Shown here piece by piece: positions 1 to 13,879 of a stretch of DNA of 13,879 nucleotides. Position 1 is the stretch's first letter, and each line of letters opens with the position of its first letter. Source of the DNA: a virus (lineage: Duplodnaviria > Heunggongvirae > Uroviricota > Caudoviricetes); IMG/VR virus record IMGVR_UViG_2703718788_000009; one strand, written 5' to 3'. Below the pieces are notes generated by a model. That model did not search any database and had not been told where the DNA came from. It saw only the letters and a list, made by a program, of their open reading frames with translations. The translations under genes were made by a program, and so were the position numbers.

Positions 1-120
1 AGCAAGCGCCATTATATTTTTGTGTGGTCTGTGGGGGATAAGTGCCCACTACATGGGAGTCCTTCCAGGACCTTAGCTAAAGCTAAGCCCGTTGGGTCTA
101 TGAAGCGTAAAGGTAAATGA
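1..120 (+). CDS. 3' part of a junction-spanning ORF (joins 13565..13858 if circular; 137 aa total); acidic N-terminal half, basic C-terminal tail; function unknown
   Basis: Frame of the 13565 ORF continues without a stop through positions 1..117 to TGA at 118..120, 1 nt before the ATG at 122. Not in the ORF track because it crosses the window edge. Confidence 0.4.
   Translation, partial: SKRHYIFVWSVGDKCPLHGSPSRTLAKAKPVGSMKRKGK
57..103. repeat. 47-bp repeat, copy A (two adjacent short palindromes: GTCCT-TCC-AGGAC and CTTAGCT-AA-AGCTAAG)
   Basis: About 44 of 47 nt identical to 4549..4595, including a 34-nt exact core 'gagtccttccaggaccttagctaaagctaagccc'. Confidence 0.85.
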
Positions 121-121
121 T

Positions 122-307
122 ATGAATACCTACGAAAAGATTTATCAAAAATTAAAAAGTGATAACAATGCTCCCGTCATCAAGGGCGGGGCTTCTTCCT
201 CTGGTGACCTCTCAATCGAAGAGCTTGCGGAGAAATATAATATTGATAAAGAGGCCCTGAAAAGGGCTATTTCATTATCAAAATCTTTAAGACAGGGCGA
301 GGTATAA
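122..307 (+). CDS. hypothetical 61-aa protein immediately upstream of the tape measure gene
   Basis: ORF with 'aaagg' 8 nt upstream of the ATG; its TAA stop is 1 nt before the ATG at 309, suggesting translational coupling. No recognisable motif. Confidence 0.5.
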   Translation: MNTYEKIYQKLKSDNNAPVIKGGASSSGDLSIEELAEKYNIDKEALKRAISLSKSLRQGEV

Positions 308-308
308 A

Positions 309-2438
309 ATGGCAATGAAGGAAGTCGCCAGACTAACAAACGTTATTTACTGGGATTCTGATAAATCCTCCTGGCGAAAAGAAGTTAAACGGCTTGAGGA
401 TTATAAAAAATCCTGGAAGAAAGCCACCGACGATATTGCTAAAGCTGATTTTAAGTCTAATCAGGCTGTGCTCAGAACACAAAGAACACGCGCTAAGGTG
501 GAAGAGCAGATCGCCAGAGCACAGAAGAAACAACGTGCTCAGGCTGTCAGCCGTCTGACCGGAGGCAATAATCCGGAGCTCTCCTCTATGCGCAAGTTCT
601 ATCAGCAGCAAGCCAGAGAAGCCGCCAGACAACAAAAACTGTTAGATCGTAGTGTTGGAGATGTTCAGCACAGAAAAGCACGTGTAGGGGCCAACAGTGC
701 ACGAATCAGCAGCATGTTTGATGGCTCTCTGGTTGCTCAGTTCCAATCCAGAATTCAGAGAGTTAATGCTGATTATGCTAAAGGGGCTATCAACCTGCAG
801 ACCTATAATCAGAAAATGGCCCGACTCAGAGCTGAAATGAAGATGGCATCTAGAGATGCCACCACCTTTCAAGGCAAGCTAGATAAACTGGCAGCAGGTG
901 CGAGCAAGGTGCATAACAATATCGGCAAGCTTAACAGTGCTTTAGGCAAGATAGCCATTGGCCTGACCGCTGCGGGATGGGGTATTCAGAGAGCTGTCAG
1001 CAGTGCTATGAGCGCTCAATCTGACCATAACTCAGCCTATTATGGTTTGCTTGCTCAGAACAAGGATGATAAAGCCAAGACTGACCAACAGATGGCTTTT
1101 ATCGACAGAATCTCTAACGATTATGGGATGGATCAGCGTGAGGCTGAAGGCGGCTTTATGCGCTTTGCTGCAGCCACACCGAACGTAAAAGAGGGTGATA
1201 AACAGGCTCTCTTTGAGGCTATGGCTATTAAAGGTCGCTCAGTGGGTGCTACTGCGGACCAACAGAACAGGGCTATCGTTGCACTAGGGCAGATCTATAG
1301 CAAGGGCGGTCGAGTGTATGCGGAAGAGCTTAAGGGCCAACTTTCTGAAGCCCTGGCAGGCTCTCAGGTAGATTTCACCCGTGCGGCTATCGATGCCGGA
1401 ATCATCAAGAAAGAGGAAGAATTTAATAAAGCCCTTGAAGATGGCAAGATCACCATGGACAAGCTTCTTCCCTCTCTGGTGAAAATTTGGGGTGCTGCAA
1501 AAGAAACTGACGCTTTTGCTAAATCCATGCAGCAGCCAGAGGTGGCACTGCAGAGAATGAGCAACCAGTTTTTTAAACTAAAGCAATCCTTTATGGGTGT
1601 TGTTGATCCAACTGATAACGTTATTACCCTTTCTGAATCCCTGATCTACATCTTCGAAGACTTATCATCAATTTTCAGCGGCTCAGGTGAAGATGCCAAA
1701 TCACTGGGGGTTATGCTGGGTGAGGCAATGGATACAGTTTACACCCGTGCAGTTTGGGCTATTTGGTGGATTAAGAAGATCGCTAAAGAAATCGGTGAGA
1801 TGTTCAATCTGACCGCACAGGATGCAGGAAGTTGGATAGGCACAATTGTTACCGCTATCATGGGCCTGAAGGTTGCTGGAAGCGTGGCAGGCATGGTGGG
1901 CGGCCTTATCTCTATGCTGTGGAAGCTTGGATCAGCGATCAAGGCTTTATTAGTTGGTGGCGGTGTTGGTGATATCAGCACTGGGGGCACACCAGGTAAG
2001 GGCAAACCAGGTAAAGGCGGTTTAATCGGGAAAGTAGGCAGACTGGGAAGGTTTGCAGGTCCGGCTGCAGTTATTGCTACCGGATTCGATATTGCTAATG
2101 GTCTGGATGCATACTGGCAGAATCCTGATAATCAGCGACAGGAAGGAGTTAAACACCCGGAATGGCTAACCAGCATAGTTAATGGTGCTTCTAGCTTCCT
2201 CGGCCTTGATTATCGTCTCGATGCAGGACGCTACATTACCAGACCAACACCGACGGGTGGAATGGCTATTCAGAATGGTGGCTATCAACCAGTTCAGGTA
2301 AATGTAGTTCCACAAGGTGAGATTTCCGGCAAATGGGAGATAACCATTGATGAGGGTGGAATTGCCAGGGTGATCCAGAAGGAAGTCAGCGATCAGTTGG
2401 ATTGGAAAGCCACACAGGAATCTAATCAGCTTTTCTAA
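309..2438 (+). CDS. phage tail tape measure protein (lambda gpH-like)
   Basis: 709-aa ORF with SD 'gaggt'. Charged, Ala/Gln/Lys-rich N-terminal half, two hydrophobic helices (WIGTIVTAIMGLKVAGSVAGMVGGLISMLW), then a Gly-rich segment (GGGVGDISTGGTPGKGKPGKGG). The segment EEFNKALEDGKIT resembles lambda gpH 'EELNKALKDGKIL', recalled from memory and not verified. Confidence 0.75.
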   Translation: MAMKEVARLTNVIYWDSDKSSWRKEVKRLEDYKKSWKKATDDIAKADFKSNQAVLRTQRTRAKVEEQIARAQKKQRAQAVSRLTGGNNPELSSMRKFYQQQAREAARQQKLLDRSVGDVQHRKARVGANSARISSMFDGSLVAQFQSRIQRVNADYAKGAINLQTYNQKMARLRAEMKMASRDATTFQGKLDKLAAGASKVHNNIGKLNSALGKIAIGLTAAGWGIQRAVSSAMSAQSDHNSAYYGLLAQNKDDKAKTDQQMAFIDRISNDYGMDQREAEGGFMRFAAATPNVKEGDKQALFEAMAIKGRSVGATADQQNRAIVALGQIYSKGGRVYAEELKGQLSEALAGSQVDFTRAAIDAGIIKKEEEFNKALEDGKITMDKLLPSLVKIWGAAKETDAFAKSMQQPEVALQRMSNQFFKLKQSFMGVVDPTDNVITLSESLIYIFEDLSSIFSGSGEDAKSLGVMLGEAMDTVYTRAVWAIWWIKKIAKEIGEMFNLTAQDAGSWIGTIVTAIMGLKVAGSVAGMVGGLISMLWKLGSAIKALLVGGGVGDISTGGTPGKGKPGKGGLIGKVGRLGRFAGPAAVIATGFDIANGLDAYWQNPDNQRQEGVKHPEWLTSIVNGASSFLGLDYRLDAGRYITRPTPTGGMAIQNGGYQPVQVNVVPQGEISGKWEITIDEGGIARVIQKEVSDQLDWKATQESNQLF

Positions 2439-2448
2439 TATTGTGATC

Positions 2449-2469
2449 TAAATCAATAAGTTAGCCTAA
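2449..2469. repeat. copy 1 of 20-bp repeat 'aaatcaataagttagcYtaa'
   Basis: Matches 8341..8360 at 19 of 20 positions; both copies lie downstream of the stop of a plus-strand gene. Confidence 0.7.
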
Positions 2470-2485
2470 CCGGATAAACTCCAGG

Positions 2486-2521
2486 CAAGAAAAAAGCCCC
2501 TAAGTGTTAACAAAGGGGCTC
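2486..2521. terminator. intrinsic terminator-like hairpin, strong on the minus strand, weaker on the plus strand
   Basis: Perfect 7-bp stem agcccct (2495..2501) / aggggct (2514..2520) with a 12-nt loop. The minus strand reads a U5 run after the stem; the plus strand is followed by a pyrimidine-rich 'cttctccggtatcctttt'. Confidence 0.5.
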
Positions 2522-2550
2522 TTCTCCGGTATCCTTTTGATGCGGGGCAA

Positions 2551-2598
2551 AACCTGCTAACAAAAATCAACCTCTCGCGAGACTAATGTTAGCAGGTT
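2551..2598. other. perfect 12-bp inverted repeat (aacctgctaaca / tgttagcaggtt) around a 24-nt loop that carries the 'caacctctcgc' motif
   Basis: Direct reverse-complement match within the ORF-free region between the convergent operons. Confidence 0.6.
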
Positions 2599-2939
2599 GC
2601 CGGAAGGTAAGTCAACTCCGGCCTATAAACCTTAAAGCGACTATAAAATTGCCCCGCCAATTGTGATGATCCGACCTTTGAGGCGGGTCCGGTGCCCAGG
2701 GGGTGCAGTGATGCACAAACCAGGCAACGATAAACAGGCTAACAGTGATAGCGGCGCTCAATCAGCGCACTAAATCCTAACCAGTCCGGGAAAGAGGCTG
2801 GCTCTATCGACCGCTCATGCACGGGACAATGCATACCTGATAAAGGATTCTCACAAGGGACCAATCGCGAGAAAAGAAGTGGAAAGGGGCTGATTTGTGG
2901 TGTATCACTACGGCCTCAAAAGAACACTATTGTCTTTTT

Positions 2940-3392
2940 TCAGCCTCTCCCAACATTTGACCAGTATTTGATTGCACCGATCAAATCATCATAGTGGCGC
3001 ATTGCATCATTGAAGCCTTTATAGCTTGCCCATTGTGGTGAAACTTTGTTATTGCTGAATTGCCCACTAATCAGGATAGTCTCCAAAATGTCGGCGTATC
3101 GCTTGCCAATTCGCTTTCTGACGGCCTCAGAGCTCCCACCCTTTACGATTGCATTAATCAGGGCTTTTGTGTGTCTCAGGCTCTCATAGAGCATTGCAGC
3201 GTGGGCAGATTCCATAAAGGAGCGCTTAGGCAGATCACCCCACCCCTCAGAATGGATAGCCGCCAGTGTGGCGTAATTCAGGCCGCTATAGTGTTTCCCG
3301 TCATCCCAGCCAACCGCTACACCTTCCATCTGTGAGAGCTCTTTATGCAGCTTATCCATCATGCGCTTGTCTATGGTGCAACGGACTTTCAT
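2940..3392 (-). CDS. hypothetical protein, possibly virion morphogenesis or head-tail joining
   Basis: 150-aa ORF whose ATG overlaps the upstream gene's stop in an ATGA arrangement (translational coupling). It is the last gene of the minus-strand structural operon. The functional guess rests on context only. Confidence 0.5.
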   Translation of the reverse strand: MKVRCTIDKRMMDKLHKELSQMEGVAVGWDDGKHYSGLNYATLAAIHSEGWGDLPKRSFMESAHAAMLYESLRHTKALINAIVKGGSSEAVRKRIGKRYADILETILISGQFSNNKVSPQWASYKGFNDAMRHYDDLIGAIKYWSNVGRG

Positions 3393-4168
3393 TTTGTAGC
3401 ATCCTTGGCAAACTTGGCCTGCCTTTGCTGTTTCCAGGCGCTATCAGCTGCGTCATAGTTGCCGCCGTTTTCCTCTAACAACGTGTTAAAATCTTTAGTC
3501 TTAGCCGATGGGGTGTTGGTTGAGTTCCCTACGTTGCTATTCTTCTCAGCACTGTTAACAGCACCCTTTTGCTGTGTTTTGTTCACCTTCTTGCTGTTAG
3601 TGAAGACTCCGGCATTTTCGACCATCTTCACCTTGAAGGTGCGGAATTCTTCAAAGGTGCAATCAATAGTGATGCAGTCACCAGAGGAAGAGCTACGCTT
3701 AACTTCACATTTCGTCATGATGAAGTTCTCAAGGAGTCCGGCATCTTCACTTACCAGGCTAACAAGCTGGCGCTTGTCTCTCATTTCCATAAGTGCCTGA
3801 ACAGCGGCGGCAGGGCGCATAGATTCACGGGGATTATCTGGATCAGTGTTCCGGTCAATGTAGTTCTCTTTCCGGATGATATGAGGAGAAGAGGTAACAA
3901 TACCCGTAAAGCTGACAGATTTATCTTTAATGACGGCATGGTCTGACATGGTGGTGCCATCCTCGACCGCATAGCTCGATTTCTCAACAGGGAACGAATA
4001 GCTGACATCAGAGATAGAGTCAAAGAAGATAGCCACGTTATCGGTATAGTTGAAGCCATCCATTATATTTTTGTTTTGTGAATATCCCCCACACATAACA
4101 GTGAATGCAGGAGATCTCGATTCAGCTTGTTTTGCAGCTGTCAGAGCATCACTAGCCATATTAAACAT
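3389..4168 (-). CDS. hypothetical protein, possibly a virion structural component
   Basis: 259-aa ORF. A GGAGG sits 1 nt before the first ATG and about 10 nt before the second ATG (4159), so the true start is probably 4159 (MASDALT...). Ser/Thr/Asn-rich, with a Lys/Asn-rich low-complexity C-terminus. Confidence 0.55.
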   Translation of the reverse strand: MFNMASDALTAAKQAESRSPAFTVMCGGYSQNKNIMDGFNYTDNVAIFFDSISDVSYSFPVEKSSYAVEDGTTMSDHAVIKDKSVSFTGIVTSSPHIIRKENYIDRNTDPDNPRESMRPAAAVQALMEMRDKRQLVSLVSEDAGLLENFIMTKCEVKRSSSSGDCITIDCTFEEFRTFKVKMVENAGVFTNSKKVNKTQQKGAVNSAEKNSNVGNSTNTPSAKTKDFNTLLEENGGNYDAADSAWKQQRQAKFAKDATK

Positions 4169-4264
4169 GCCTCCAAAATGAATCTTTTCGTTGCCCTGCT
4201 TAAAATCTGCAGAAAATACAGGGCAGTTATTCGTTAGAATCGCTTATAGCTCTTCCCGAGAGCG

Positions 4265-4525
4265 TTATTTTGCAAAACGATTATGGGCATTCAGGGCTTT
4301 TTTGCGGTCCTGGGCTTGTTTGCGTGCAATAAAATGTTCGAAAGTCTCGGCCCAGGTGCATTTATTATATTCACGGTATTTATGCATAGCCTGGCGGCTA
4401 ACGTCATAGCAGGCGGAAAATGTGGAGATACGCAGGAATTCCGGCAGATCCTCGTCATCGATATGGATAATATCAAAAGGCACGTCGTCACGGTCGCCGT
4501 ATAAAACAATTTTCATAAAAGACAC
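4265..4525 (-). CDS. hypothetical small acidic protein (about 83 aa from the ATG at 4516)
   Basis: The track start at 4525 is GTG; the ATG at 4516 has SD 'gaggtg' 6 nt upstream. First gene downstream of repeat copy B. Confidence 0.5.
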   Translation of the reverse strand: MSFMKIVLYGDRDDVPFDIIHIDDEDLPEFLRISTFSACYDVSRQAMHKYREYNKCTWAETFEHFIARKQAQDRKKALNAHNRFAK

Positions 4526-4548
4526 CTCAAAAACTTAAGACGGGGATT

Positions 4549-4595
4549 ATGAGTCCTTCCAGGACCTTAGCTAAAGCTAAGCCCTTTGGGTCTGT
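4549..4595. repeat. 47-bp repeat, copy B
   Basis: See copy A (57..103). Lies between the capsid-gene terminator and the next minus-strand gene. Confidence 0.85.
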
Positions 4596-4602
4596 GGATA
4601 AT

Positions 4603-4663
4603 AAAAAAGGGAAGAGGGAAAGACCTATCCCCGATCTCTCACCTCTTCCCTTTGCTTTTATTT
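4603..4663. terminator. bidirectional rho-independent terminator downstream of the capsid gene
   Basis: 9-bp stem gggaagagg (4609..4617) / cctcttccc (4642..4650) with a 24-nt loop; flanked by A6 (4603..4608, a U6 run on the minus strand) and 'tttgcttttattt' (4651..4663). Confidence 0.65.
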
Positions 4664-4679
4664 GGCCTTCGAAGAAGGT

Positions 4680-5729
4680 TTATTTAGCCTTGGCTTTTGC
4701 CAGAGCAGCGGCGGCGGCGTTTTTAACACTCACTTTAACCACAACTTCGGGCATCATGTTCATGAAAGCATAAGAGGATTCAACGAAGATTTCTCGTTTG
4801 GCTCTGGACTCTTCCATATACATGAAAGCTTCACGTGCAGCGCCGTTTGCAAGCTTCAGGTTGCGAGCGCAAGGGCCGAAAAATTGAGTATAAACGCCCA
4901 CCATATCGCCTAACGCATGCGGCTGGAACTGTGGGACCAGATAAGCAGTATTCTCTGGCAGACTATCCATTTGCACCACACGCAGAGCTAAGCCTGGAAT
5001 GCGGAAAGTCGGGAAGCCCGGCAGAATATCCTCAGGGAACATCAGACCTTTATCAGTGATATTCTGATTGCCGAACAACAGCACTTTTCGCAACAGTTCA
5101 TCAGTCTGAATTGCAGCAAAGAGCTCAGCACGGCAGAACAGGGTGAAACCACGCAGAGCGCGAACGACACCACGCTGTTTAACCTTGCTCAGCGCAACCA
5201 GGTCCTGCAGCTGTTTAAGGATATCTTTAGCTAAATCCACTTCTGAGGTGGTTTGCTGTGCGCCCAGCAGTTCGCACACATTCAGTTCTTTACCCTTGGT
5301 GAGGATAATTTTGTTCTCAAAGAGAGCAAGCTGGCGTGCTTCTTCATGGGTCTGGCGTAAGCCTTCACCAAGCTGAATAACACGACGAGCGGTTACAGAC
5401 TCTAAATTCTCTTCGGAATCTTTGCCCGGAACACGGATACCCTGCCAGTCAGAAGGATAAATAGCACTTGATGCGGCAGTGAATGCCATATCACCCGTGC
5501 CCGTTTCACGCTCATCTGCGGTAATGGTAGCCATCTGTTCACCGTAGCGCGGATACTGACCGAAAGCGGTTTGTTTCACCTGGCGAACTTTGTCATATTC
5601 AAATTTAAAGGTATTGCACAGAGCAGTAGTGTTGAAGATATCCATTGCTGAAATAATCTGGTTATCCAGCGGGATGTCTTTAATCAAGCCACACAGATCG
5701 CGGACTTCGAATTCTTTTTTCATCTCCAA
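4680..5729 (-). CDS. major capsid protein (lambda gpE-like)
   Basis: The likely start is the ATG at 5723 with AAGGAGG 6 nt upstream; the track start at 5729 is TTG. The segment SLPENTAYLV and the C-terminal 'REIFVESSYAFMNMMPEVVVKVSV' resemble lambda gpE 'FLPDNTMVLG' and 'REFTMIQSAPLMLLADPDEFVSV', recalled from memory. About 347 aa, preceded by a small beta-rich protein. Confidence 0.7.
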   Translation of the reverse strand: MEMKKEFEVRDLCGLIKDIPLDNQIISAMDIFNTTALCNTFKFEYDKVRQVKQTAFGQYPRYGEQMATITADERETGTGDMAFTAASSAIYPSDWQGIRVPGKDSEENLESVTARRVIQLGEGLRQTHEEARQLALFENKIILTKGKELNVCELLGAQQTTSEVDLAKDILKQLQDLVALSKVKQRGVVRALRGFTLFCRAELFAAIQTDELLRKVLLFGNQNITDKGLMFPEDILPGFPTFRIPGLALRVVQMDSLPENTAYLVPQFQPHALGDMVGVYTQFFGPCARNLKLANGAAREAFMYMEESRAKREIFVESSYAFMNMMPEVVVKVSVKNAAAAALAKAKAK

Positions 5730-5734
5730 CCTCC

Positions 5735-6070
5735 TTATTGTGCAACACGCAAATCGCCATTGCTGGCAGCGATAACAGCGGCTAAGCCTTCTTTATCCAC
5801 GTAGGCCGGATTGATATAACAGCCCTTGTTGGCAACAACGATAAAAGCATCACCAACCTCAGCACGTTCTACAACCAGCAGCGGAGTTTTACCGGTGTGC
5901 GTTGCTTTAACGAAGGTCTCAACCTCGCCAGCCTCAGTCACCACAACAACAGTGCCAGCCGGAATCTCAGCTTTAACTTTGTTTTTAATTTCAACGTCGC
6001 GAATACTAAATTGCTCATCTGCGGCGTATGAAATGATGTGTCCGCGTGTGCGGATAGTCATATCTCTCAT
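5735..6070 (-). CDS. putative head decoration or auxiliary capsid protein (by position)
   Basis: 111-aa ORF whose TAA stop overlaps the capsid gene's SD. Val/Thr/Gly-rich and beta-like. The assignment is positional (lambda D-E order), not from sequence identity. Confidence 0.45.
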   Translation of the reverse strand: MRDMTIRTRGHIISYAADEQFSIRDVEIKNKVKAEIPAGTVVVVTEAGEVETFVKATHTGKTPLLVVERAEVGDAFIVVANKGCYINPAYVDKEGLAAVIAASNGDLRVAQ

Positions 6071-6195
6071 TTGATCACCTGCGATTTAAATTAACTCCCC
6101 TCAAAGAGTTCCGGTATAACCTCTCAAACCACGACAGGCTCGGGCCGAAAAGTTATGCCGGAAATCTAAAGGGAAATTGATACAAGGAGAGGGAG

Positions 6196-6225: not shown

Positions 6226-6548
6226 TCCACATGGGGAAACCGACAACAGTCGGATGATAGTTCACAGTATGGGTTACGGTTACTAGAGAGCACTATCACG
6301 AAAGGCACTCCCCCGAATCAGTTCAGGCTGCGGTCACATCAGCGGGGAAATACCTTTCGGGATAGCTACCCACACAGAAAACCCGCAAAAGAAAACTGTG
6401 TGGATAACTAGCCCAATAGGAGAATTAATCGACCACTCAACGATGATCAGGGTAGTGTTATTTATAAGGCGGCACCGCTACCTGGTCGCCTTTACTTTGG
6501 AGGAAAATACGGCAAATCACTTTCACCATTGATTTACGGTATATGTAT

Positions 6549-6577
6549 ATTATATCAGTATTCTCTCAAATTGTCAA
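6549..6577 (-). promoter_or_regulatory. perfect-consensus sigma70 promoter (TTGACA-N17-TATAAT) on the minus strand, directed at the capsid operon
   Basis: The reverse complement of 6549..6577 reads TTGACA atttgagagaatactga TATAAT, with an AT-rich stretch upstream. Predicted start near 6540, about 470 nt before the ATG at 6070. Confidence 0.6.
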
Positions 6578-6841
6578 CACCCTGATTATATAAATTCTAA
6601 TAATTAGCGTAGTAACGGTATTTTCAGACTGCTATCAATCCCATCAATACGTCACCCCCACCCTTTAGATGCATACATCCGACCTACTTTGTAGGCTTGG
6701 CGTACTGCCAAGGTCGAAGCTATGCGACTCATATCTATCACCACTTTATAAAGCTTGATAGATATCTTTTGATCAATATCAATGTTTTCCGGGGATTTAC
6801 CCGGCTATAGTTCGAATCAAGGAAGGGGAGCATTGATAGAG

Positions 6842-6890
6842 ACACCCAAAGGGGTGACTGAAAGTCACCTGGCATAGCCAGTGAAAGCAC
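6842..6890. repeat. 50-bp repeat, copy A (palindromes GGTGAC-N5-GTCACC and CTGGC-N3-GCCAG)
   Basis: About 42 of 49 positions match 12072..12120; lies about 45 bp upstream of the ATG at 6934. Confidence 0.8.
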
Positions 6891-6933
6891 CCAACCGAAC
6901 AAACAAATCAACTTCTCGCAAAAGGTGATAGTT

Positions 6934-7157: not shown

Positions 7158-7418
7158 ATGACGGGGGCTAAAGATATCAGGAGATTGAGGGAAGAGCTGA
7201 TAGCTGAAATTAAAGCTAAGGCAAAGCAAATGGAGATAGCCGCACAAATGGATGTAGCGGAACAGATGTACAAGATGGTTGAAGAGGGAACACCACGGCA
7301 GGTTATAGCAAAAACATTTGGTGTGGGGATCGCCACCGTGCACAGAAGGCTGAAAGCCTATGCCGACTACCACAATATCGAGAGAAAGGAGGATGGGAGA
7401 TTTAAGAAGAATAAATAG
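7158..7418 (+). CDS. small DNA-binding protein with a helix-turn-helix motif
   Basis: 86-aa ORF with SD 'gagagg'. The motif TPRQVIAKTFGVGIATVHRRLK looks like an HTH of the resolvase or IS3 OrfA type; the N-terminus looks coiled-coil. Confidence 0.6.
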   Translation: MTGAKDIRRLREELIAEIKAKAKQMEIAAQMDVAEQMYKMVEEGTPRQVIAKTFGVGIATVHRRLKAYADYHNIERKEDGRFKKNK

Positions 7419-7475: not shown

Positions 7476-8162
7476 ATGTTTAAAGGTCTTGTTGTTACGC
7501 TATTGGCTTGCATTGTATTTGGTCCATGGGTGTTAGTAATTGCTTTACCTATATTGCTGATCATGAGCTTAGGGAATGATATTAAAAAGCTGCAAAAGCT
7601 GCATGCACAATATAAGGAGAATCCCGGCGCGTTCATGGTAAGTCTGGTTATAGTCGCGGGGCTTATTGGATGGGTGTATTTCTCCCTCCCCACAGGAAAT
7701 ACAACTGCAAATGTAGAAGAGGCCGCAGTGGTAGAGGAAAAAGCCAACAAAGGATTCAGATTTATTGTTGGTGTGGATAGCCCAGTATATGGCCCTGAAG
7801 CTGTGGATCCTGCAATGGTGCATGCCTGGTTATGGAACAGAACGGAGAAAGGTAGCTGCAATCAACTAAAAGCGAGCGCCAACATAGAAGAGGAAGGAGA
7901 TACATTTTTCGCATGGTGTAAAGATATCAAAGGCAATGATAGGTGGTTTACCATTACCAATATTGTAGGTGTTTCCCGTTCACTAATGAATCACCCTGAG
8001 GCTAAGAATCCGCTAACAGGTGTCCGATTAAAAGATGGCCCAATATGGATCGATTTATACGGAACACAAATCACTGAGGGCGTGAACAGCGATATCCAGG
8101 ATAAGCTGAAAGACATAAATAATCAGTATGGTGCGATTGTTGAAACCTCTCCTATGAAATAA
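7476..8162 (+). CDS. membrane protein with two N-terminal transmembrane helices and a roughly 150-aa C-terminal domain, possibly superinfection exclusion
   Basis: 228-aa ORF with SD 'agagg'. Hydrophobic segments at about residues 5..30 and 53..70, separated by a Lys-rich loop. Function is a hypothesis. Confidence 0.6.
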   Translation: MFKGLVVTLLACIVFGPWVLVIALPILLIMSLGNDIKKLQKLHAQYKENPGAFMVSLVIVAGLIGWVYFSLPTGNTTANVEEAAVVEEKANKGFRFIVGVDSPVYGPEAVDPAMVHAWLWNRTEKGSCNQLKASANIEEEGDTFFAWCKDIKGNDRWFTITNIVGVSRSLMNHPEAKNPLTGVRLKDGPIWIDLYGTQITEGVNSDIQDKLKDINNQYGAIVETSPMK

Positions 8163-8182
8163 CCACACCTACCCAACCTACC

Positions 8183-8216
8183 AGGGCCACCACTTAGGAT
8201 GGCCCTTTTTATTTAT
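8183..8216 (+). terminator. rho-independent terminator of the 6934..8162 module
   Basis: 7-bp stem agggcca / tggccct with a 10-nt loop, followed by 'ttttatttat', 21 nt after the stop codon. Confidence 0.7.
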
Positions 8217-8220
8217 GTGC

Positions 8221-8280
8221 TATTTAATACCCATTTATCCCCTATTTAATGCCTATTTATTGATTTAATCCGTTTTATGC
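8221..8280. repeat. phased TATTTA(A/T) repeats at roughly 11-bp spacing; possibly bent DNA or an architectural-protein site
   Basis: tatttaatacc / atttatcccc / tatttaatgcc / tatttattgat / ttaatccg / ttttatgcc in succession. Confidence 0.4.
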
Positions 8281-8340
8281 CACAACCGCCCGGTTGACAG
8301 AGTAAGAGAGAGGGTGTAACCCTTTTTCGTAATACTAATA

Positions 8341-8360
8341 AAATCAATAAGTTAGCTTAA
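8341..8360. repeat. copy 2 of 20-bp repeat 'aaatcaataagttagcYtaa'
   Basis: See 2449..2469. Confidence 0.7.
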
Positions 8361-9368
8361 TAAGCCTTTTCTCTATTTTTGTCAAATTTAACATACCCTA
8401 AAAAACTGCAAAATCTGACTGCAAGATTATCTGCAGCTGGATTTCTTACACCTCAATTTGTGGTATCACCCTGACTAGTTTGTGCATAAAATGAACAGTT
8501 TTTAACATTTCCTATTCACCTGGTAACCACACAAAAAGCTAAAAACGAGGCACAGATAATCTTAGAGGCCTGTTTTCTTGTTATCACTATGGGAACGTCG
8601 TAGAAGTGATTTTGATGAAAGATGACCTACCCTATTACACCCCCATTTTTTGTTATCACAATTGCATCCTGTGCGGTATATGGCTGTGTGCTGAAAGCGG
8701 TCTTGGGTGTGGGTGTCAGAAATATCCATTAGCGGTATTAATACCCGTCAGATGTTCGTCTGAGGTGCCAGGCAGGCGCTCCCCCACCTCCCTTTTTTCT
8801 TCTAACAATTCTCAAATATCACACCACTGCCCACCACGTTGCTATTATGTTAATTCTTAAGCTTTGCTGTATGTTGTGCACATTATTTATTCAGGTGCGT
8901 GTACGTAAATTCTGGGCCTCCTTATCATGATTTTTAAATCAGATTTTGTAGTGCGCTTTATTAGTGTAGATAAGATCTATTATGTTAAATGCAATTTTCC
9001 CAACCCTTCAAATCAATGACTTACATGTAAGCATGCACTAACACCCCACACAGCACATTAGACGTGTAGATGTCTATATCCCACATTTTTGATTGTTTTG
9101 TAGTCATTCCCCTGATCATTTAACCAGTATAGTTTGCTATCTGCAGACCACAAAATCGGAATTTACATCTGATTAACATAATCTGTTAGCATGATCACCA
9201 TTACCCACACAACAATAACCCCATGCAAGCCTCTTTAGGCAATTTATCGGCGTGTTGGTGTGAACAGTCTTTCATGTTCTTTATGTATTCATGACTGCAA
9301 GGAATGTATTCATTGGCCTGTGTGGGGGAAGGATGGACTGCCCCAGGGGCCATACTTATGATGCCCGG

Positions 9369-9404
9369 TCAACATAAGTGTTGATAAAATCAAGGGGTGT
9401 TGAT
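9369..9404. promoter_or_regulatory. pair of adjacent inverted repeats (TCAACA-N4-TGTTGA and ATCAA-N6-TTGAT); candidate operator
   Basis: Both have perfect arms; they sit just upstream of the iteron cluster. Confidence 0.4.
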
Positions 9405-9426
9405 CTGCATATTTCCCACACATGAG

Positions 9427-9456
9427 AGGAAATCAGAGCAAAGAGAGAGGAGAGAG
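9427..9456. repeat. polypurine (GA-rich) tract
   Basis: A 30-nt run of almost only A and G on the plus strand. Confidence 0.5.
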
Positions 9457-9465
9457 GTTTGTTAG

Positions 9466-9520
9466 TCAAAATCAAGTCACATTAGAGTCAAATCAAGTCA
9501 AATCAGATGCAATCAATCCC
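9466..9520. repeat. cluster of 'aatcaagtca'-type direct repeats
   Basis: gtcaaaatcaagtca, gtcaaatcaagtca, aatcagatgca, aatcaatccc in tandem. Confidence 0.6.
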
Positions 9521-9521
9521 C

Positions 9522-9586
9522 CACCTGTTGGGATTTCCCACATGTTCAACCATACACAGGAGCTAACCTGTTGGGATTTCCTACAC
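9522..9586. repeat. two copies of 'acctgttgggatttccYaca', 45 bp apart
   Basis: 9522..9541 and 9567..9586 are near-identical. Confidence 0.7.
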
Positions 9587-9639
9587 CTCTTGCACATACC
9601 CCGGAAGATTTTTCCGGTGTGCCATCTTTGCAGGCTCCA

Positions 9640-9807
9640 ACCTGTGAAGAATTTTCACACCTGTAAATCCATACAGCACGGTAAAAACTACCGCACCACC
9701 TGTCAAAATATTTTACTACCCCACCAATAATACGGCCCATACCTGTAAAATATTTTTACTACTACCTGTCAAAATCTTTTACTACTACCTGTAAAAATAT
9801 TTGACAC
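9640..9807. repeat. iteron array with ACCTGT core (part of the candidate replication origin)
   Basis: ACCTGT occurs at 9640, 9659, 9698, 9741, 9764 and 9787, plus 9523 and 9566 in the preceding repeat. The last four sit in units of about 23 bp, 'acctgt(c)aaaatattttactac', three of them directly tandem. Confidence 0.7.
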
Positions 9808-9839
9808 TAATAGATAAAGTAACAGACCACACAATAGAT

Positions 9840-9865
9840 CCCCCCCTAACCCCCCCCCCAGGGGG
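9840..9865. repeat. homopolymer tracts C7-TAA-C10-A-G5, bracketed by GATC sites
   Basis: Read directly: gatcccccccctaacccccccccaggggg, with GATC at 9837..9840 and 9876..9879. Confidence 0.8.
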
Positions 9866-9902
9866 AATGGGGAGGGATCAGAGAGTGGGGAAGGTTTATC
9901 AA

Positions 9903-10027
9903 TATATCAAATTGATATACTTAGCTAGATGTATCAATTAATACACTTAAAGGTGAGCAATGCTTAGCTAGATGTATCAATCCGATACACTTAGAATATT
10001 CTAGATGTATCAATTAATACACTTAAA
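9903..10027. repeat. 17-bp perfect palindrome followed by three direct repeats of about 30 bp
   Basis: Palindrome tatatcaa-a-ttgatata at 9903..9919; repeats 'ctagatgtatcaat..atacactta' at 9920..9951, 9963..9994 and 9999..10027. Confidence 0.75.
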
Positions 10028-10906
10028 TCACGTAACTTATTGTATTTATTAAGAAAAGTCATCTACCTATATATACTACTGATTCGCCTCCGCTCATCAT
10101 TAGTATGGTGTAACTGATTCATGCTTCGCTTACGCTCACATTCATCTACTTACACCCCCTTATCTGAATTGAACATTCCCGTCCAATCCAGCTAAGAGAA
10201 TTGATTGAACATTACCTAACATCCGTTAGCTAACATTCTAATCAATTAACTACTTAAACACTTCCACACCTTCCGGTGGTGCCAAGTAACCTGGCATGGT
10301 GGGAAAAGATTCTGCCGTTTTAGGTAGAATTGATTTCCCACAAATAGTAAGTGTCGGCCCTTCAATGTCACTCTCCTATGAGGGGAGAGATGACGGGCCT
10401 CCTGTGTGGGTGAGTATCGGAGCAGTCTGTGAAGTATGAGCAGGCTGTGAGATACGCTACTGTATATCTGCGTAGAACAGCCTCCGCTGTTTACGCTCTT
10501 TGTGTGGTCCGGCGAATGCGTCAGCATGAGGCCCACATGTGGACCGCTGCCGAAAGCTTGCCAGCGCCGGAAGGAGGCAGCAAAGAGTCTCCCGCGCTCA
10601 TGTGTGGGCGTATACGTAAGATATACATTCATAAATCCAATCCTAGGCCCCTAAATGGCCTTCTGGCTGCATTAACCTGTGTGAGTAGTGCAATTGCATT
10701 ACCTGATGCTTAAATCGCGTTGTAGGGCCTCTCATAGAGAATTTAACTATCAAGATAAAAATTGCAGATCGGTCTATTGACAATCTTATTGCATAAATGC
10801 TATAAGTTATTCTGGTTTTGACACGGTAGGGGCCATTAATAATGCTTACCCCCTTTGCTGTGGACTTGCTTGCACCTATAGCACACCTAAATGATAATAA
10901 TTCTCA

Positions 10907-10935
10907 TTGACAATTGGTTGACAATATGATAAGAT
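10907..10935 (+). promoter_or_regulatory. candidate sigma70 promoter (TTGACA-N17-TAAGAT) upstream of a small ORF
   Basis: Consensus -35 at 10907..10912, a 4-of-6 -10 at 10930..10935, and a second overlapping TTGACA at 10918. Confidence 0.35.
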
Positions 10936-10970
10936 TATAAATAGGGGGAGAAACAGATCCGGAGGTCAAT

Positions 10971-11120
10971 GTGGAAATTACTGATGCAATAGCGATCATC
11001 AACCTGGCTGTACTGTGGTGCGGTGTTGCCTACATAGCCGGAGTAACTGCAATAGACAATCTTGAAGAAAAAATGATAGATAAATACAAAAAGATTGTTG
11101 ACAATTTGACGAATGTTTGA
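10971..11120 (+). CDS. small membrane protein (49 aa, GTG start), possibly holin-like or toxin-like
   Basis: GGAGG 5 nt upstream of the GTG; VEITDAIAIINLAVLWCGVAYIAGVTAIDNLEEKMIDKYKKIVDNLTNV has one transmembrane-like helix and a charged C-terminal tail. Absent from the ORF track. Confidence 0.3.
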   Translation: MEITDAIAIINLAVLWCGVAYIAGVTAIDNLEEKMIDKYKKIVDNLTNV

Positions 11121-11126
11121 TAAAAT
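11098..11126 (+). promoter_or_regulatory. strong sigma70 promoter (TTGACA-N17-TAAAAT) for the leader and Rep operon
   Basis: -35 at 11098..11103, a 17-nt spacer, -10 at 11121..11126. Confidence 0.6.
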
Positions 11127-11176
11127 ATAAAGCATAGGGTAATTCTCAGCATGTGAATTTTCCTTAAACAGACTAG

Positions 11177-11206
11177 CGGGGCTTGTCTTGAGTCCCGTTT
11201 CTTTTT
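11177..11206 (+). terminator. intrinsic terminator or attenuator in the leader between the promoter and the first operon gene
   Basis: Stem cggggc / gtcccg (one G-U pair) with a 9-nt loop, followed by 'tttcttttt'. It lies about 45 nt after the predicted start and 44 nt before the ATG at 11250. Confidence 0.55.
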
Positions 11207-11249
11207 AAACCTACATCGCACAGGCGATGAGCTGACAGGAGATTGAATC

Positions 11250-11459
11250 ATGGCTAAAACCGGACCGATAAGCCAGCTGGTAAACTGGACTACTGACGAA
11301 ATCGTCGAGAACGTGCTTAAAGGTAACTTTCGCAAAACTTCCGTTTATGCATTTATTCGAAAACACAAAGGAGAATATCCACACATTGAAGCGGCAATAG
11401 AAAAATTAAACTTTATTAAACTTGAGCGCCAGCTTGAAAGATATAAACACCTACTTTAA
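11250..11459 (+). CDS. hypothetical small basic protein, possibly a regulator; first gene of the Rep operon
   Basis: 69-aa ORF with SD 'aggag' 8 nt upstream. Confidence 0.55.
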   Translation: MAKTGPISQLVNWTTDEIVENVLKGNFRKTSVYAFIRKHKGEYPHIEAAIEKLNFIKLERQLERYKHLL

Positions 11460-11495
11460 TAAAAGGTAACCGTAACCCGGTAAGAGGTAAACATT

Positions 11496-12410
11496 ATGAA
11501 TATTGAGTCTGTTTTTAATATAACTTTAAATGATGATCCTAGTATCCTTTTGCTGCCAATGCTCATAAATAAATCTGGACTATTAAAAAGAGGCGACGCA
11601 AGGGATATCTATATTTACATGTGGAATACTTACTATCTCCACGCTAAAAAAGAGGCCGCCAAGGTGTTCAGCAAGAAGACTAAAGGAAGAAGCCTCAGCC
11701 AGGATATGAAAAACTCCATCAGAAAAGAGTGTTTTGCTATTAAAGATAAAGATTCCTGTGTGGAGATCTCTTATAAGGATATAGAGGAAAGAATTGGAAT
11801 ACTGCGACCAAATGCAGTAAGGGCAATTAAAAAGCTGGAATCTGAAGGAATTATCACCTGCCTTAAAAAAGGCAATAAGCATAACCCTTATGCATCATGG
11901 CAAATTAATGTCGGAATCTTTGAAATGATGGAAAGAGTAGGGATTGAAAACCTCATTGGGTGGGATCTCTTAAAACCATATTGGAAGAAAGAACAGGAAG
12001 CAGCCGGAAGAGGGGAGGGGGCCAAAGCTCCACAGGAAGCTCCAAAACAAGCCGCACAGCAGCCTGAAGACACACCCGAAGGGGTGACCGTAGGTCACCT
12101 GGCTAAGCCAGCGAAAGAGTCCAAAGTGGTGCAATTCCCTTCTGTGAAAGATAAAGACGTTAGCGTAGAGCACAACTCTTATTCCGAAAGTGTGACAACG
12201 TCACCTGTTAAGGCAAACAAGAAGGAGGCATCTAAAGTGATAGATATTTCTTCTTTTATGGCAGATGAAGATGATACGCAAGATGTGTGGTATACACCTT
12301 CAGAAAATGATTATAGTGGTAGTGGTGGTTATGATCCTTATGGCTATGATGAGGATGAATACAACCCATTTGAAGATGAATATACAAATGATTCCGCTAT
12401 CCCTTATTAA
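11496..12410 (+). CDS. putative replication initiator (winged-helix, lambda-O/RepA-like N-terminal domain) with a long disordered acidic C-terminal tail
   Basis: 304-aa ORF with SD 'agagg'. The segment 'VEISYKDIEERIGILRPNAVRAIKKLESEGIITC' resembles the winged-helix DNA-binding domain of lambda O 'RITDSQLSEITKLPVKRCNEAKLELVRMNII', recalled from memory. The C-terminal 140 aa are low-complexity and end in ...EDEYTNDSAIPY. Confidence 0.55.
   Translation: MNIESVFNITLNDDPSILLLPMLINKSGLLKRGDARDIYIYMWNTYYLHAKKEAAKVFSKKTKGRSLSQDMKNSIRKECFAIKDKDSCVEISYKDIEERIGILRPNAVRAIKKLESEGIITCLKKGNKHNPYASWQINVGIFEMMERVGIENLIGWDLLKPYWKKEQEAAGRGEGAKAPQEAPKQAAQQPEDTPEGVTVGHLAKPAKESKVVQFPSVKDKDVSVEHNSYSESVTTSPVKANKKEASKVIDISSFMADEDDTQDVWYTPSENDYSGSGGYDPYGYDEDEYNPFEDEYTNDSAIPY
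12072..12120. repeat. 50-bp repeat, copy B, embedded in the Rep-like coding sequence
   Basis: Matches 6842..6890; encodes ...TPEGVTVGHLAKPAKE... in the disordered tail. Confidence 0.8.
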
Positions 12411-12498
12411 TACCCCCAAATAAACTAAATAAACTAAACATAGAATTACTAGAACTAGATTGATTGCCCTGATCTTTTAAACGTTCGGAGAATTAATC

Positions 12499-12987
12499 AT
12501 GTTCAAATCTGATCTTTCTGATTCCCAATTTGAAAAACTGGTAGCACTGCAGAAATATCTCCCCAGTGATGATCAACCAACACGACAGGCTAAACACTTA
12601 TTAGTCGAGGGCTTTACCCCTGAATTCGTGGCGGAATACACAGGCGTTAAACTTGAGAAAGTCCAAAAACTATATAATGAGTCCTGGAATCCACGGTGTC
12701 GAGTTCCCCTCAGTGTCTACAACGAAATAGACAGAGATAGAAATGTCTTCGAAGATCGCCGCCGCAAATCTCTTTTAATGTGGAATTGTGGGATGAATAT
12801 TGAAGAGATAGCAAAAGAATTAAAAGTAACCTGCTTTCATATCTGGGGCTTGTTGAGTGAAATCCTGCCACGTAAGGAGCTTAATCAACGTTTGCCTAAG
12901 CCCGGCAGTCGTGCTTATCGCGAATTTATATTCATCTACCGCCGCCATAGCAATAAAGTCCGGAAAGCAATGGCCCAGAAAGCCTAA
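12499..12987 (+). CDS. DNA-binding protein with two predicted helix-turn-helix motifs (regulator or small-terminase-like; unresolved)
   Basis: 162-aa ORF with SD 'ggag'. HTH-like segments FTPEFVAEYTGVKLEKVQKL and MNIEEIAKELKVTCFHIWGLL; basic C-terminus. Confidence 0.55.
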   Translation: MFKSDLSDSQFEKLVALQKYLPSDDQPTRQAKHLLVEGFTPEFVAEYTGVKLEKVQKLYNESWNPRCRVPLSVYNEIDRDRNVFEDRRRKSLLMWNCGMNIEEIAKELKVTCFHIWGLLSEILPRKELNQRLPKPGSRAYREFIFIYRRHSNKVRKAMAQKA

Positions 12988-13060
12988 GTTTTATCTCTTC
13001 GATTTATTTATTTTCGACTCACTTTAACCCCTTCCGGGGCTCTAATTTAAGGAATTCCAA

Positions 13061-13504
13061 ATGTCTCAAATCGCTAAATTACTATCCCAGGTTATCAAAG
13101 CTTTCGACGCTGAAGATTCAAAAGTTCGCCAGGATCTTTTAGATGGCAAGTTTACCAACACCCTGGCATTTACCCGTGACAAAGAGCACTTCTTAAAACA
13201 CAGACACCACGCTTTTGCTGAATGCAAGTCCGCTAATGGTGATGTTTTCTATGTCGATTTGGTGGTTATGGCATGTAGGCTGTGGATGATTCAGGACCTT
13301 ATGCGCCAACACGGTGATGATCCTCTTATCAGCATGTGGAACAGCGCCCAGGATGGCTTTGTGATTGCTGCCTTATCCAAATCAATGATTGAGGCAGAAG
13401 GGGCAAGCCTTCAGAACATGGCAGATCTCTTTGAAATAAGCGTAGGAATGATGCAGACCATGCTCCAAGCTGTCAAACCTCTCAAACTGGTTAATCTTGA
13501 TTAA
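13061..13504 (+). CDS. hypothetical protein (147 aa), probably alpha-helical
   Basis: ORF with SD 'aagga' 7 nt upstream; no recognisable motif. Confidence 0.5.
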   Translation: MSQIAKLLSQVIKAFDAEDSKVRQDLLDGKFTNTLAFTRDKEHFLKHRHHAFAECKSANGDVFYVDLVVMACRLWMIQDLMRQHGDDPLISMWNSAQDGFVIAALSKSMIEAEGASLQNMADLFEISVGMMQTMLQAVKPLKLVNLD

Positions 13505-13564
13505 GCTATTGATAAATAAGCACTCCCCATTTTTTGGGGGGTGCATCAATGAGAGGATATGCCT

Positions 13565-13879
13565 ATGAATATTGAAGAAATGATAGTTGAATTCGAAGAG
13601 GGTGATTTCCTGGAAGATGGGGAGTTTAAATACTCCCGTTTTAAACAGGCGTTATTTAGCAGCGATGATAAACCCCACGTTAGTGATCTTAATGACGATG
13701 ATTTATGTCGTTGGGTATGCACCCGCTTATATGAGGATGGAAAATATACAGGCCAAAACTTTCCAAATCTCTATTTCAAAGCACAAACATTTGAGGAAGG
13801 GCAAAGAGTGAAAAACCTGATCGATAAAATGCTTTCAGCCGGATATTTGCATGCTGAAAGCAAGCGCCATTATATTTTT
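13565..13879 (+). CDS. 5' part of the junction-spanning ORF (acidic protein; continues at 1..120 if circular)
   Basis: ATG at 13565 with SD 'gagagga' 7 nt upstream; open to the window end. The overlapping track ORF 13587..13811 is in another frame and looks spurious. Confidence 0.5.
   Translation, partial: MNIEEMIVEFEEGDFLEDGEFKYSRFKQALFSSDDKPHVSDLNDDDLCRWVCTRLYEDGKYTGQNFPNLYFKAQTFEEGQRVKNLIDKMLSAGYLHAESKRHYIF
13859..13879. other. 21-nt terminal redundancy identical to 1..21, marking a circular junction or assembly overlap
   Basis: 'agcaagcgccattatattttt' occurs at both ends of the window. Confidence 0.9.

Follow-up and report, generated by a model that had tools for sequence, protein, structure and literature searches.

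Work on the closest described systems has shown that phage satellites can carry virion genes of their own. All PLEs, the satellites of the Vibrio cholerae phage ICP1, encode homologues of a tail assembly chaperone (TAC), a tape measure protein (TMP) and a baseplate hub that are 19-41% identical to those of ICP1 and are selectively incorporated in PLE virions, giving rise to chimeric tails (PMC11838301). The Extracellular Prophage-Inducing Particles (EPIPs) of Mycolicibacterium likewise encode a major capsid protein (MCP) together with a TMP (bioRxiv 10.64898/2025.12.02.691453). As for the plasmid lifestyle, a 2025 review knew of a single plasmid satellite, that of an inovirus. The subject of the present work is a stretch of DNA of 13,879 nt (IMG/VR record IMGVR_UViG_2703718788_000009; "the window" below means the whole of it), a circular Escherichia coli plasmid that encodes both an MCP and a TMP. 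An earlier note, made from its letters alone, had started from the premise that known satellites lack a TMP, which is outdated in view of PLEs and EPIPs.

The analysis makes it fairly probable that the window is a plasmid-borne satellite, or hitcher, of virulent rV5-like myoviruses (Vequintavirus). It has a specific molecular link to such a helper, in the form of four structural homologues and three DNA segments in common with Vequintavirus, and it is without genes for an autonomous particle, namely terminase, portal, most of the tail and lysis functions. In the searchable literature, no description was found of Vequintavirus satellites, of plasmid satellites with a capsid or tape measure gene, or of these plasmids by name, and the earlier note was right to call the element undescribed.

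A plasmid family with homologues of Vequintavirus virion genes

The window is a complete circular E. coli plasmid and not a fragment of a larger phage. Because its first and last 21 nt are identical, it closes into a circle of 13,858 bp, and megablast found nine related E. coli plasmids, all deposited as complete and circular, of 13.2-13.7 kb and with 90-95% identity over 69-86%. Seven of 5,426 complete E. coli genomes contained the element, as a plasmid every time and never in the chromosome. Two metagenome contigs with the element measure 13,870 and 13,895 nt, the MCP clusters of protein databases map to contigs of 13.4-14.3 kb, and the unit size is 13.2-14.7 kb in all records. The plasmid relatives originate from humans, cattle, pig and chicken on four continents, and all are typed as non-mobilizable. 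An additional plasmid record, L005 (NZ_CP043822.1, 39,610 bp), was considered as a larger element and rejected, being three tandem copies of a 13.2-kb unit and probably an assembly or multimer artefact. Genes in one of its three copies are frameshifted; the tripling could stem from long-read assembly or reflect a genuine multimer.

The genes form two divergently arranged sets (Table 1). The minus-strand operon runs from a 111-amino-acid (aa) protein (g111) through the MCP (349 aa), an 86-aa protein (g86a) and a 259-aa Dit_like protein, the tail-tube initiator, to a 150-aa neck protein (g150). The plus-strand operon encodes, in order, a 69-aa protein (g69), a 304-aa Rep-like protein, proteins of 162 aa (g162) and 147 aa (g147), a 139-aa protein that spans the junction (g139), a 61-aa protein (g61) and the 709-aa TMP. 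Between the operons lie an 86-aa helix-turn-helix (HTH) protein (HTH86), a 228-aa membrane protein (g228) and about 3 kb without a convincing open reading frame (ORF), which holds the iterons. Proteins were annotated with the Pfam, PHROGs, NCBIfam and PADLOC libraries.

The virion genes of the plasmid point to one particular group of phages. E. coli Vequintavirus phages, also called rV5-like, are lytic and have genomes of about 137 kb. When the proteins were compared by tblastn with the whole genome of PDX, an E. coli Vequintavirus, and gene identities were taken from the annotated FFH2 genome, the tube initiator matched ORF48, which adjoins the TMP gene (49%, 9e-61), the neck protein matched ORF56, annotated as "tail completion or Neck1" (44%, 1e-34), the TMP matched ORF49 (25%, 4e-19) and the MCP matched ORF59 (23%, 1e-7). 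The alignment of the TMP with that of FFH2 is colinear from end to end (709 vs 778 aa, 25%). Across phage genomes, identity of the tube initiator is 49-51% in E. coli Vequintavirus, 40-46% in the Klebsiella, Salmonella, Cronobacter and Pectobacterium members of the Vequintavirinae and 24% in phi92-like phages. Moreover, in phmmer searches of PDB sequences, the best matches of three proteins (tube initiator, 9cuy_K, 4.5e-34; TMP, 9cuy_W, 4.6e-19; MCP, 9cul, 2e-4) were all from phage phiTE, which belongs to the Vequintavirinae and is a lytic myovirus of 142 kb with a T=13 head (PMC11972413). For the small proteins g111, g139 and g61, no similarity to the phage counterparts at the same positions was detectable.

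Selection has clearly acted on these genes. Pairwise Nei-Gojobori comparison with the nine relatives gave dN/dS values of 0.00-0.34 for all 13 genes tested, and all genes have intact frames. The neck protein is the most constrained of the element (0.00-0.02), while values are 0.02-0.08 for HTH86, 0.06-0.16 for the MCP and 0.04-0.24 for g139. On these alignments and substitution rates, the MCP, neck protein, TMP and tube initiator are shown to be diverged, selectively maintained homologues of Vequintavirus virion genes.

The MCP has few database relatives, with only 29 matching representatives in 1.84 billion proteins. No match was found among 50,697 phage genomes at 1e-5, nor were relatives found with MCP peptide patterns in IMG/VR and the GTDB species representatives. 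A Pfam scan of the window's own protein did not return Phage_cap_E (PF03864), the lambda gpE family. That family is nevertheless matched by 23 of the 26 aligned MCP relatives (best E 1.4e-58) and by the orthologue of a second subfamily, and a profile of the MCP family matches solved myophage capsid proteins with E-values as low as 8e-49. Because the relatives and the family profile match where the protein itself does not, the MCP of the window is, by transitive homology, a remote member of Phage_cap_E. An AlphaFold2 model from the single sequence had a pLDDT of 32 and was unusable.

Other phage functions are missing from the element. Its largest ORFs encode 709, 349, 304, 259 and 228 aa, and the scans of the four libraries found no terminase, portal, protease, integrase or lysin. 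The element was also shown to be without scaffold or protease, sheath, tube, baseplate wedge and fibres. No PADLOC defence family was found among the core or cargo proteins.

Replication appears to depend on the Rep-type initiator. Four iterons at 23-bp spacing and a second set lie in the ORF-poor region, and where a relative has a different Rep allele (24-33% identity or no match), its 22-23-bp iterons differ as well. Each Rep allele is thus paired with iterons of its own, as expected of a working iteron replicon. A Rep protein with matched iterons as its putative binding sites gives the window the features of an iteron-type theta plasmid.

Across the family, conserved blocks with 92-98% DNA identity are interspersed with cassettes that have been exchanged. 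Three such cassettes are seen: Rep together with its iterons, the cargo locus of one gene that follows HTH86, and the C-terminal third of the TMP (about 1650-2250), which varies in allele among family members. TMP alleles have 63-87% aa identity and a dS of 0.4-0.9, as opposed to 0.1-0.2 in the remaining backbone, and this difference therefore indicates allele exchange, not decay. The exchange points to the C-terminal, membrane-active part of the protein as the piece that is swapped.

More distant relatives retain much of the arrangement. Gene order is unchanged in a second subfamily from E. coli (L025, a circle of about 14.6 kb), whose proteins are only 33-59% identical in aa. In remote relatives from short-read assemblies, whose MCPs are 42% and 30% identical, the order of decoration-like gene, MCP, small ORF and Dit-like gene is kept; a neck gene of about 150 aa comes next in L013 and not in L014, and one of these remote relatives resembles the window in having a long gene in convergent orientation. 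A chromosomal island adjoining a tyrosine integrase in another bacterium (L016; GCA_044011355.1, DAZZAK010000015.1, 1500-11700) encodes a Rep-like protein, a g162-like protein, a phiTE_211-domain protein, a 709-aa TMP-like protein, a g111-like protein and an MCP (26%). It has neither tube initiator nor neck gene and is, judged by its gene content, an integrated cousin of the plasmid family. Relative L010 (NTNY01000053.1) carries an insertion (13452-21041) between the neck gene and the TMP with aminoglycoside phosphotransferases of the strA/strB type, an insertion sequence, tetR and tet-region genes. Its contig is at least 30 kb, and the backbone is therefore able to carry resistance genes.

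Much of what the earlier note had read from the letters is borne out by these results. It had proposed an autonomous episome, and the relatives are complete circular plasmids of 13-15 kb, found in no E. coli chromosome; it had allowed that the contig might be part of a larger phage genome, and complete plasmid relatives of the same architecture speak against that. The MCP, a remote gpE relative by transitive homology, the Rep-like initiator with its iteron cluster and the absence of terminase, portal, integrase, protease and lysis enzyme are likewise confirmed. Two other assignments hold in part. The protein called a gpH-like tape measure is a TMP, but its likeness to gpH is a functional analogy for which homology was not demonstrated. 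The decoration-like protein does exist as a 111-aa gene directly upstream of the MCP, but the name is an analogy. All items listed in that note were checked; the tube initiator and the neck protein had been missed.

Phage-shared DNA and other features

A second link between the plasmids and rV5-like phages is found in their DNA. Megablast of the window against phage genomes gave no match; in sensitive blastn alone, three short segments in common with rV5-like phages emerged at 82-90% identity. With the non-coding part as query, the sensitive search returned 125 phage records, essentially all rV5-like.

One of these links consists of two 60-nt blocks (10344-10403 and 10537-10597) with 85-87% identity to rV5-like intergenic DNA, both contained in a structured-RNA-like element. 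The phage counterpart (FFH2, NC_024134.1, 64771-64980; L018, 3001-3210) lies in a 640-nt intergenic region near RNA ligase, polynucleotide kinase (PNK) and tRNA genes. The element is predicted to fold into two hairpins (plus-strand fold z = -3.9). Between the plasmid and phage copies, six of the 34 predicted pairs are compensatory and stem substitutions keep the pairing, which is broken by one cell only of the alignment, in an otherwise invariant pair. Neither the window nor the phage intergenic regions matched an Rfam family, and the element may be an undescribed phage non-coding RNA (ncRNA).

Another link is a two-hairpin motif of 52-57 nt with the consensus ACACCCrAAGGGGTGAC-N5-GTCACCTGGC-N3-GCCAGyGAAAG. 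Both copies in the window (6836-6887 and 12068-12118 in the alignments) match rV5-like phages at 88-90%. Its sites vary among the plasmids, where it is found in non-coding DNA, in frame in Rep and in frame in a small ORF upstream of the TMP. In phage PDX, it forms an inverted pair (53649-53701 and 55767-55820) around a nearly ORF-free 2-kb region. In this distribution, the motif resembles a very small mobile module or a binding site for a protein. Taken by their DNA identity, the shared segments show recent recombination between the plasmids and rV5-like phages, which would therefore meet within the same cells.

A separate structured region (2545-2945) lies between the convergent TMP and neck genes. 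It has 76% DNA identity to subfamily 2, as against 33-50% for the flanking proteins. RNAalifold predicted 110 plus-strand pairs, 18 of them with compensatory changes, and subfamily 2 has replaced most positions on either side of a long-range helix of 10-12 bp without loss of pairing. With nhmmer, the remote relatives yielded weak counterparts at the corresponding location, whereas the phage yielded none. The region is a candidate ncRNA or packaging/recognition site, the strand being ambiguous.

The non-coding DNA of the window also holds several likely expression signals. A sigma-70 promoter of perfect consensus faces the structural operon, and this minus-strand promoter and a plus-strand promoter have a common 46-nt similar context that includes TTGACAAT. 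A terminator-like hairpin follows the near-consensus promoter of the plus operon, an arrangement that suggests control by attenuation or antitermination. The GC-rich hairpin at 2485-2525 may terminate transcription in both directions; a weak match there to countertranscribed RNA (ctRNA) was put down to mere terminator shape. Within the ORF-poor region, the stretch 8250-9500 is conserved at 88-98% identity in the subfamily.

The heptamer CCACACA is the commonest 7-mer of the window, with 20 copies vs 1.4 expected, mostly in non-coding DNA (e.g., 6370, 6397, 8527, 9046, 9205, 9319, 9416, 9827, 10403, 10501 and 10601). Each family member has 14-19 copies, and subfamily 2 has 12. The copy at 6397 (minus strand) lies in a perfect DnaA box, TTATCCACA. 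Conceivably, the conserved region 2545-2945, the heptamer and the TTGACAAT context could have roles in regulation, helper sensing or packaging.

Several smaller genes accompany the structural ones. The assignment of g111 as a decoration-like protein is one of size and position alone, and neither its sequence nor its profile gave any similarity to decoration proteins, the profile having been run against PDB sequences and PHROGs. Similarly, g139 has no family match, and it is a tail assembly chaperone by position only, in that it shares the place of the rV5-like chaperone without detected similarity. A 55-nt direct repeat (89% identical, with short palindromes) has one copy at the 3' end of g139, two genes 5' of the TMP (57-111), and the other in the opposite operon between the MCP and the next gene (4551-4605).

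HTH86 is a candidate regulator. The locus 3' of it seems to be a cargo slot, which is occupied by g228 in the window and by unrelated genes of 162-236 aa in relatives L001-L010 and L025. Among relatives L001-L012, only L012 has anything like g228, a partial match of 33% to aa 64-136, and the cargo alleles have neither Pfam nor PADLOC matches. A hydrophobic 49-aa peptide encoded between two strong promoters is possibly a membrane peptide similar to toxins or holins. Finally, a model of g162 (pLDDT 78) has two HTH modules, and Foldseek found no significant match for it in the PDB (best E 0.48, sigma factors). A role of g162 as small terminase is unsupported by that search.

Table 1. Features of the window (position 1 is its first nucleotide).
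Feature	Position	Strand	Basis or remark
Terminal assembly overlap	1..21		Repeat of 13859-13879
g139	13559-13879, across junction to 22-120	+	Acidic; two genes upstream of TMP
g61	122-307	+	Directly upstream of TMP; same position as rV5-like ORF50
TMP	309-2438	+	Pfam TMP_3 3.5e-13; TIGR02675; PHROG 5255 6e-131
GC-rich hairpin	2485-2525	-	A-run and T-run flanks; intrinsic-terminator look, minus-strand structural operon
Conserved structured non-coding region	2545-2945		Between convergent TMP and neck genes
g150, neck protein	2940-3392	-	PHROG 222 "tail completion or Neck1"; 44% to rV5-like ORF56
Tail-tube initiator	3389-4168	-	Dit_like domain 1.5e-25; 49-51% to E. coli Vequintavirus tube initiator
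g86a	4265-4525	-	Conserved, between MCP and tube initiator; in all relatives including remote ones
MCP	4680-5729	-	PHROG 29 "major head protein" 3e-22
g111	5735-6070	-	Directly upstream of MCP; head decoration gene position in rV5-like phages and lambda
Sigma-70 promoter	6549-6577	-	Perfect consensus (TTGACA-17-TATAAT with TG); faces structural operon
Two-hairpin motif, copy 1	6838-6894		Non-coding DNA
HTH86	7158-7418	+	Small DNA-binding protein; resolvase-type HTH alone, no catalytic domain
g228	7476-8162	+	Membrane protein; variable single-gene cargo locus
ORF-poor origin region	8162-11250		About 3 kb; iterons, phage-shared element, promoters and leader terminator inside
Iterons, first set	9695-9808		Four copies, 23-bp spacing
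Iterons, second set	9917-10027
Structured-RNA-like element	10344-10597	+	Contains both phage-matching 60-nt blocks
Promoter	10907-10935		Within origin region
49-aa peptide	10971-11120	+	Conserved, hydrophobic; GTG start, GGAGG ribosome-binding site; WP_157794903.1 in several relatives
Promoter	11098-11126	+	Within origin region; near-consensus, ahead of plus operon
Leader terminator-like hairpin	11175-11199	+	About 50-75 nt after promoter 11098-11126, ahead of first gene of Rep-to-TMP operon
g69	11250-11459	+	ORF; small protein, first plus-strand operon gene
Rep-type initiator	11496-12410	+	Winged-HTH matches; weak PHROG "replication initiation O-like"
Two-hairpin motif, copy 2	12068-12124		In frame within Rep
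g162	12499-12987	+	Conserved, two HTH modules; also in integrated relative L016
g147	13061-13504	+	ORF; conserved protein

The satellite reading and its rivals

If the window is indeed a satellite of rV5-like phages, its life cycle could be imagined as follows. In the uninfected cell it would replicate as a plasmid, with the two near-consensus promoters and their common operator-like context held in check, possibly by the HTH proteins, to which the leader terminator may be added in the case of the plus-strand operon. Upon infection by an rV5-like phage, the plasmid MCP and the 111-aa protein would form a small shell for about 14 kb on the portal and scaffold of the helper. The plasmid TMP and tube initiator, probably with the two small upstream proteins as chaperones, would nucleate a chimeric tail, slightly shorter than that of the helper (TMP of 709 vs 778 aa), with tube, sheath and baseplate supplied by the helper as in PLE and ICP1. 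The plasmid neck protein would connect the head to this tail, and the helper terminase would package the plasmid DNA, for which region 2545-2945 and the phage-shared motifs are candidate signals. Diversion of the assembly nucleators would lower the yield of the helper, and the host population would in turn be protected by its plasmid.

A bolder form of the proposal is put forward more tentatively. According to it, the family would make up an unrecognised class of satellite, a low-cost iteron plasmid of E. coli that lives off large virulent rV5-like myoviruses. It would build a small capsid from its own MCP on a helper portal, re-nucleate the contractile tail of the helper by means of its own TMP, tube initiator and neck protein, and use structured non-coding elements exchanged with the helper for sensing or packaging.

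Several points weigh against the satellite proposal. Packaging, transfer and helper dependence are all predictions from gene content. Since the MCP is only 23% identical to that of the helper, its compatibility with the helper portal and scaffold is uncertain. The derivative L010, of at least 30 kb with its resistance transposon, would be a misfit for a 14-kb capsid. Neither a terminase small subunit nor a pac or cos site was identified, and the family was absent from IMG/VR viral contigs by an MCP pattern and a 37-nt DNA pattern, a weak negative. The structured-RNA-like element is complete in the window, L001 and L010 only, i.e., in three of about 11 members, and is therefore accessory and not essential. 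Finally, the data give no reason why a satellite would need its own tube initiator and TMP.

The likeliest alternative is that of a plasmid devoted to defence only. The MCP, TMP, tube initiator and neck protein would then act as dominant-negative decoys against rV5-like assembly, and the plasmid would go unpackaged and spread vertically or via unspecific routes. Such decoys would show the very same homology to Vequintavirus assembly nucleators; they would agree with the absence of the family from viral-contig collections, with the lack of a recognisable packaging gene or site and with the persistence of the 30-kb transposon-bearing derivative. The variable cargo locus and the divergent TMP alleles are compatible with an arms race, and interference with tail assembly is a known defence strategy (PMC11364771). 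However, a decoy needs no complete and strongly constrained MCP together with a partner protein conserved down to 30% identity, and PADLOC defence families gave no match. Moreover, the known carriers of helper-like structural genes (PLE, cfPICI and EPIP) move in particles, and near-identical plasmids on four continents and in several animal species suggest horizontal spread despite the non-mobilizable typing. Considering both sides, a defence-only plasmid is unlikely.

A further alternative would keep the idea of a satellite, or of a genome segment, and change the partner. The plasmid would belong to an unrecognised temperate phage or phage-plasmid distantly related to the Vequintavirinae, with the rV5-like phages as mere relatives. 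The modest protein identities to rV5-like phages (23-51%), the mere 29 MCP representatives in the protein databases and the integrated relative with an integrase in another bacterium could all be taken in this sense. Yet the identity range equals that between the tail proteins of PLE and ICP1, and the stretches of 82-90% DNA identity speak for recent contact with exactly the E. coli Vequintavirus. In addition, tblastn with the MCP and TMP yielded no candidate helper among 72,556 plasmids, where nothing was found outside the family except one rV5-like record, and in complete E. coli genomes, the DNA of the window as a whole matched nothing but plasmids of the family itself. All this leaves an unknown temperate partner distinctly improbable.

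Two specific helpers of other kinds had also been considered. A phage-plasmid of the SSU5 or P1 type was dropped on that same search of plasmids. A lambdoid prophage was dropped for want of any similarity to lambdoid phages, and the co-resident lambdoid helper that the earlier note had in mind is unsupported, as both the structural genes and the three DNA segments point to Vequintavirus.

A decaying remnant of a phage-plasmid, the alternative named in the earlier note, or of a defective phage, in which a replicon and a few structural genes were kept by chance, would account for the minority of virion genes present, but it is very unlikely because of the purifying selection (intact frames, dN/dS 0.00-0.34), the allele exchange and the Rep-matched iterons, and it is further disfavoured by the constant unit size (13.2-14.7 kb) and by a gene set and order that recur in a subfamily at 33-59% aa identity, the block of head and tube-initiator genes recurring at 30-42% MCP identity.

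Significance and place among known systems

A satellite of rV5-like phages on an E. coli plasmid would be of interest on several counts. If the bolder form of the proposal is true, no plasmid satellite of a tailed lytic phage would have been known before this one, which belongs to the best-developed phage-host model system. It would also extend to E. coli the principle known from PLEs, by which a satellite rebuilds the tail of its helper with its own tape measure. Phages of the rV5-like group are frequent components of therapy cocktails, and the BASEL collection includes them too. A route of spread for these plasmids would be of practical interest, since one member already carries resistance genes (the strAB/tet region). 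More than 10% of E. coli plasmids have been reported to be without a known transfer route, and a family typed as non-mobilizable, whose gene content leads to the prediction of transfer by, or interference with, rV5-like phages, provides a testable example for that gap. Host, phages and plasmids are all available, and the hypothesis could be tested within weeks.

Among known systems, the PLEs come closest. They too have a virulent myovirus as helper (inferred in the present case), they encode their own TMP and a baseplate-core protein diverged from those of the helper (19-41% identity in PLE vs 25-51% here), and they have a Rep-type initiator of their own and no terminase large subunit or portal. 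Of the PLE trio of TAC, TMP and hub, the plasmid has the TMP and a chaperone by position only; its third component is a tube initiator and not a hub. Nonetheless, there are clear differences. PLEs are integrated in the chromosome by means of a large serine recombinase and leave it when ICP1 infects, whereas the present element is an iteron plasmid without recombinase and always in the plasmid state. PLEs use the ICP1 capsid protein with an external scaffold, TcaP, whereas the element has its own MCP and, next to it, a small putative head protein. The element lives in E. coli and would have a Vequintavirus as helper, and no sequence similarity of the element to PLE proteins was seen.

The capsid-forming PICIs (cfPICIs) resemble the element in their size of about 12-15 kb and in having their own MCP and head-tail joining function while taking other parts from the helper. 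Unlike the plasmid, cfPICIs are integrative and carry a full head module (portal, protease, adaptors and small terminase) without tail genes. Of such a module, the window has only the MCP and one neck protein; portal, protease, terminase and integrase are missing, and tail-core genes are present.

EPIPs share with the element the presence of an MCP and a TMP in a satellite-sized genome. They differ in carrying a serine integrase, small terminase, scaffold and adaptors, and in having Mycobacteriaceae as hosts and a temperate siphovirus as helper, as opposed to an E. coli plasmid related to a lytic myovirus.

Satellite P4 is similar in that it lives in enterobacteria, has a genome of similar length (11.6 kb, vs 13.9 kb for the window) and is able to persist in plasmid form; it also remodels the capsid of its helper, as the present element would. 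The cargo slot of the plasmids is also reminiscent of the accessory and defence hotspots of P4 and PICIs. However, P4 encodes an integrase, the alpha primase-helicase, Sid, Psu and Delta, has no MCP or tail genes and depends on the temperate helper P2; no such family appeared in the Pfam, PHROGs and NCBIfam scans of the window.

Phage-plasmids such as P1, N15 and SSU5 combine plasmid replication with phage structural genes, as does the element. In contrast to its 13.9 kb and 4-7 virion-related genes, they have genomes of 40-120 kb or larger that encode an entire phage, including its terminase, portal, tail and lysis functions.

The combination seen in the window, an MCP of its own without portal or terminase plus a tail core of its own, has not been seen before. 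Taken as a satellite, the family is new in its lifestyle, its helper and its combination of genes, and it is not a categorically new system.

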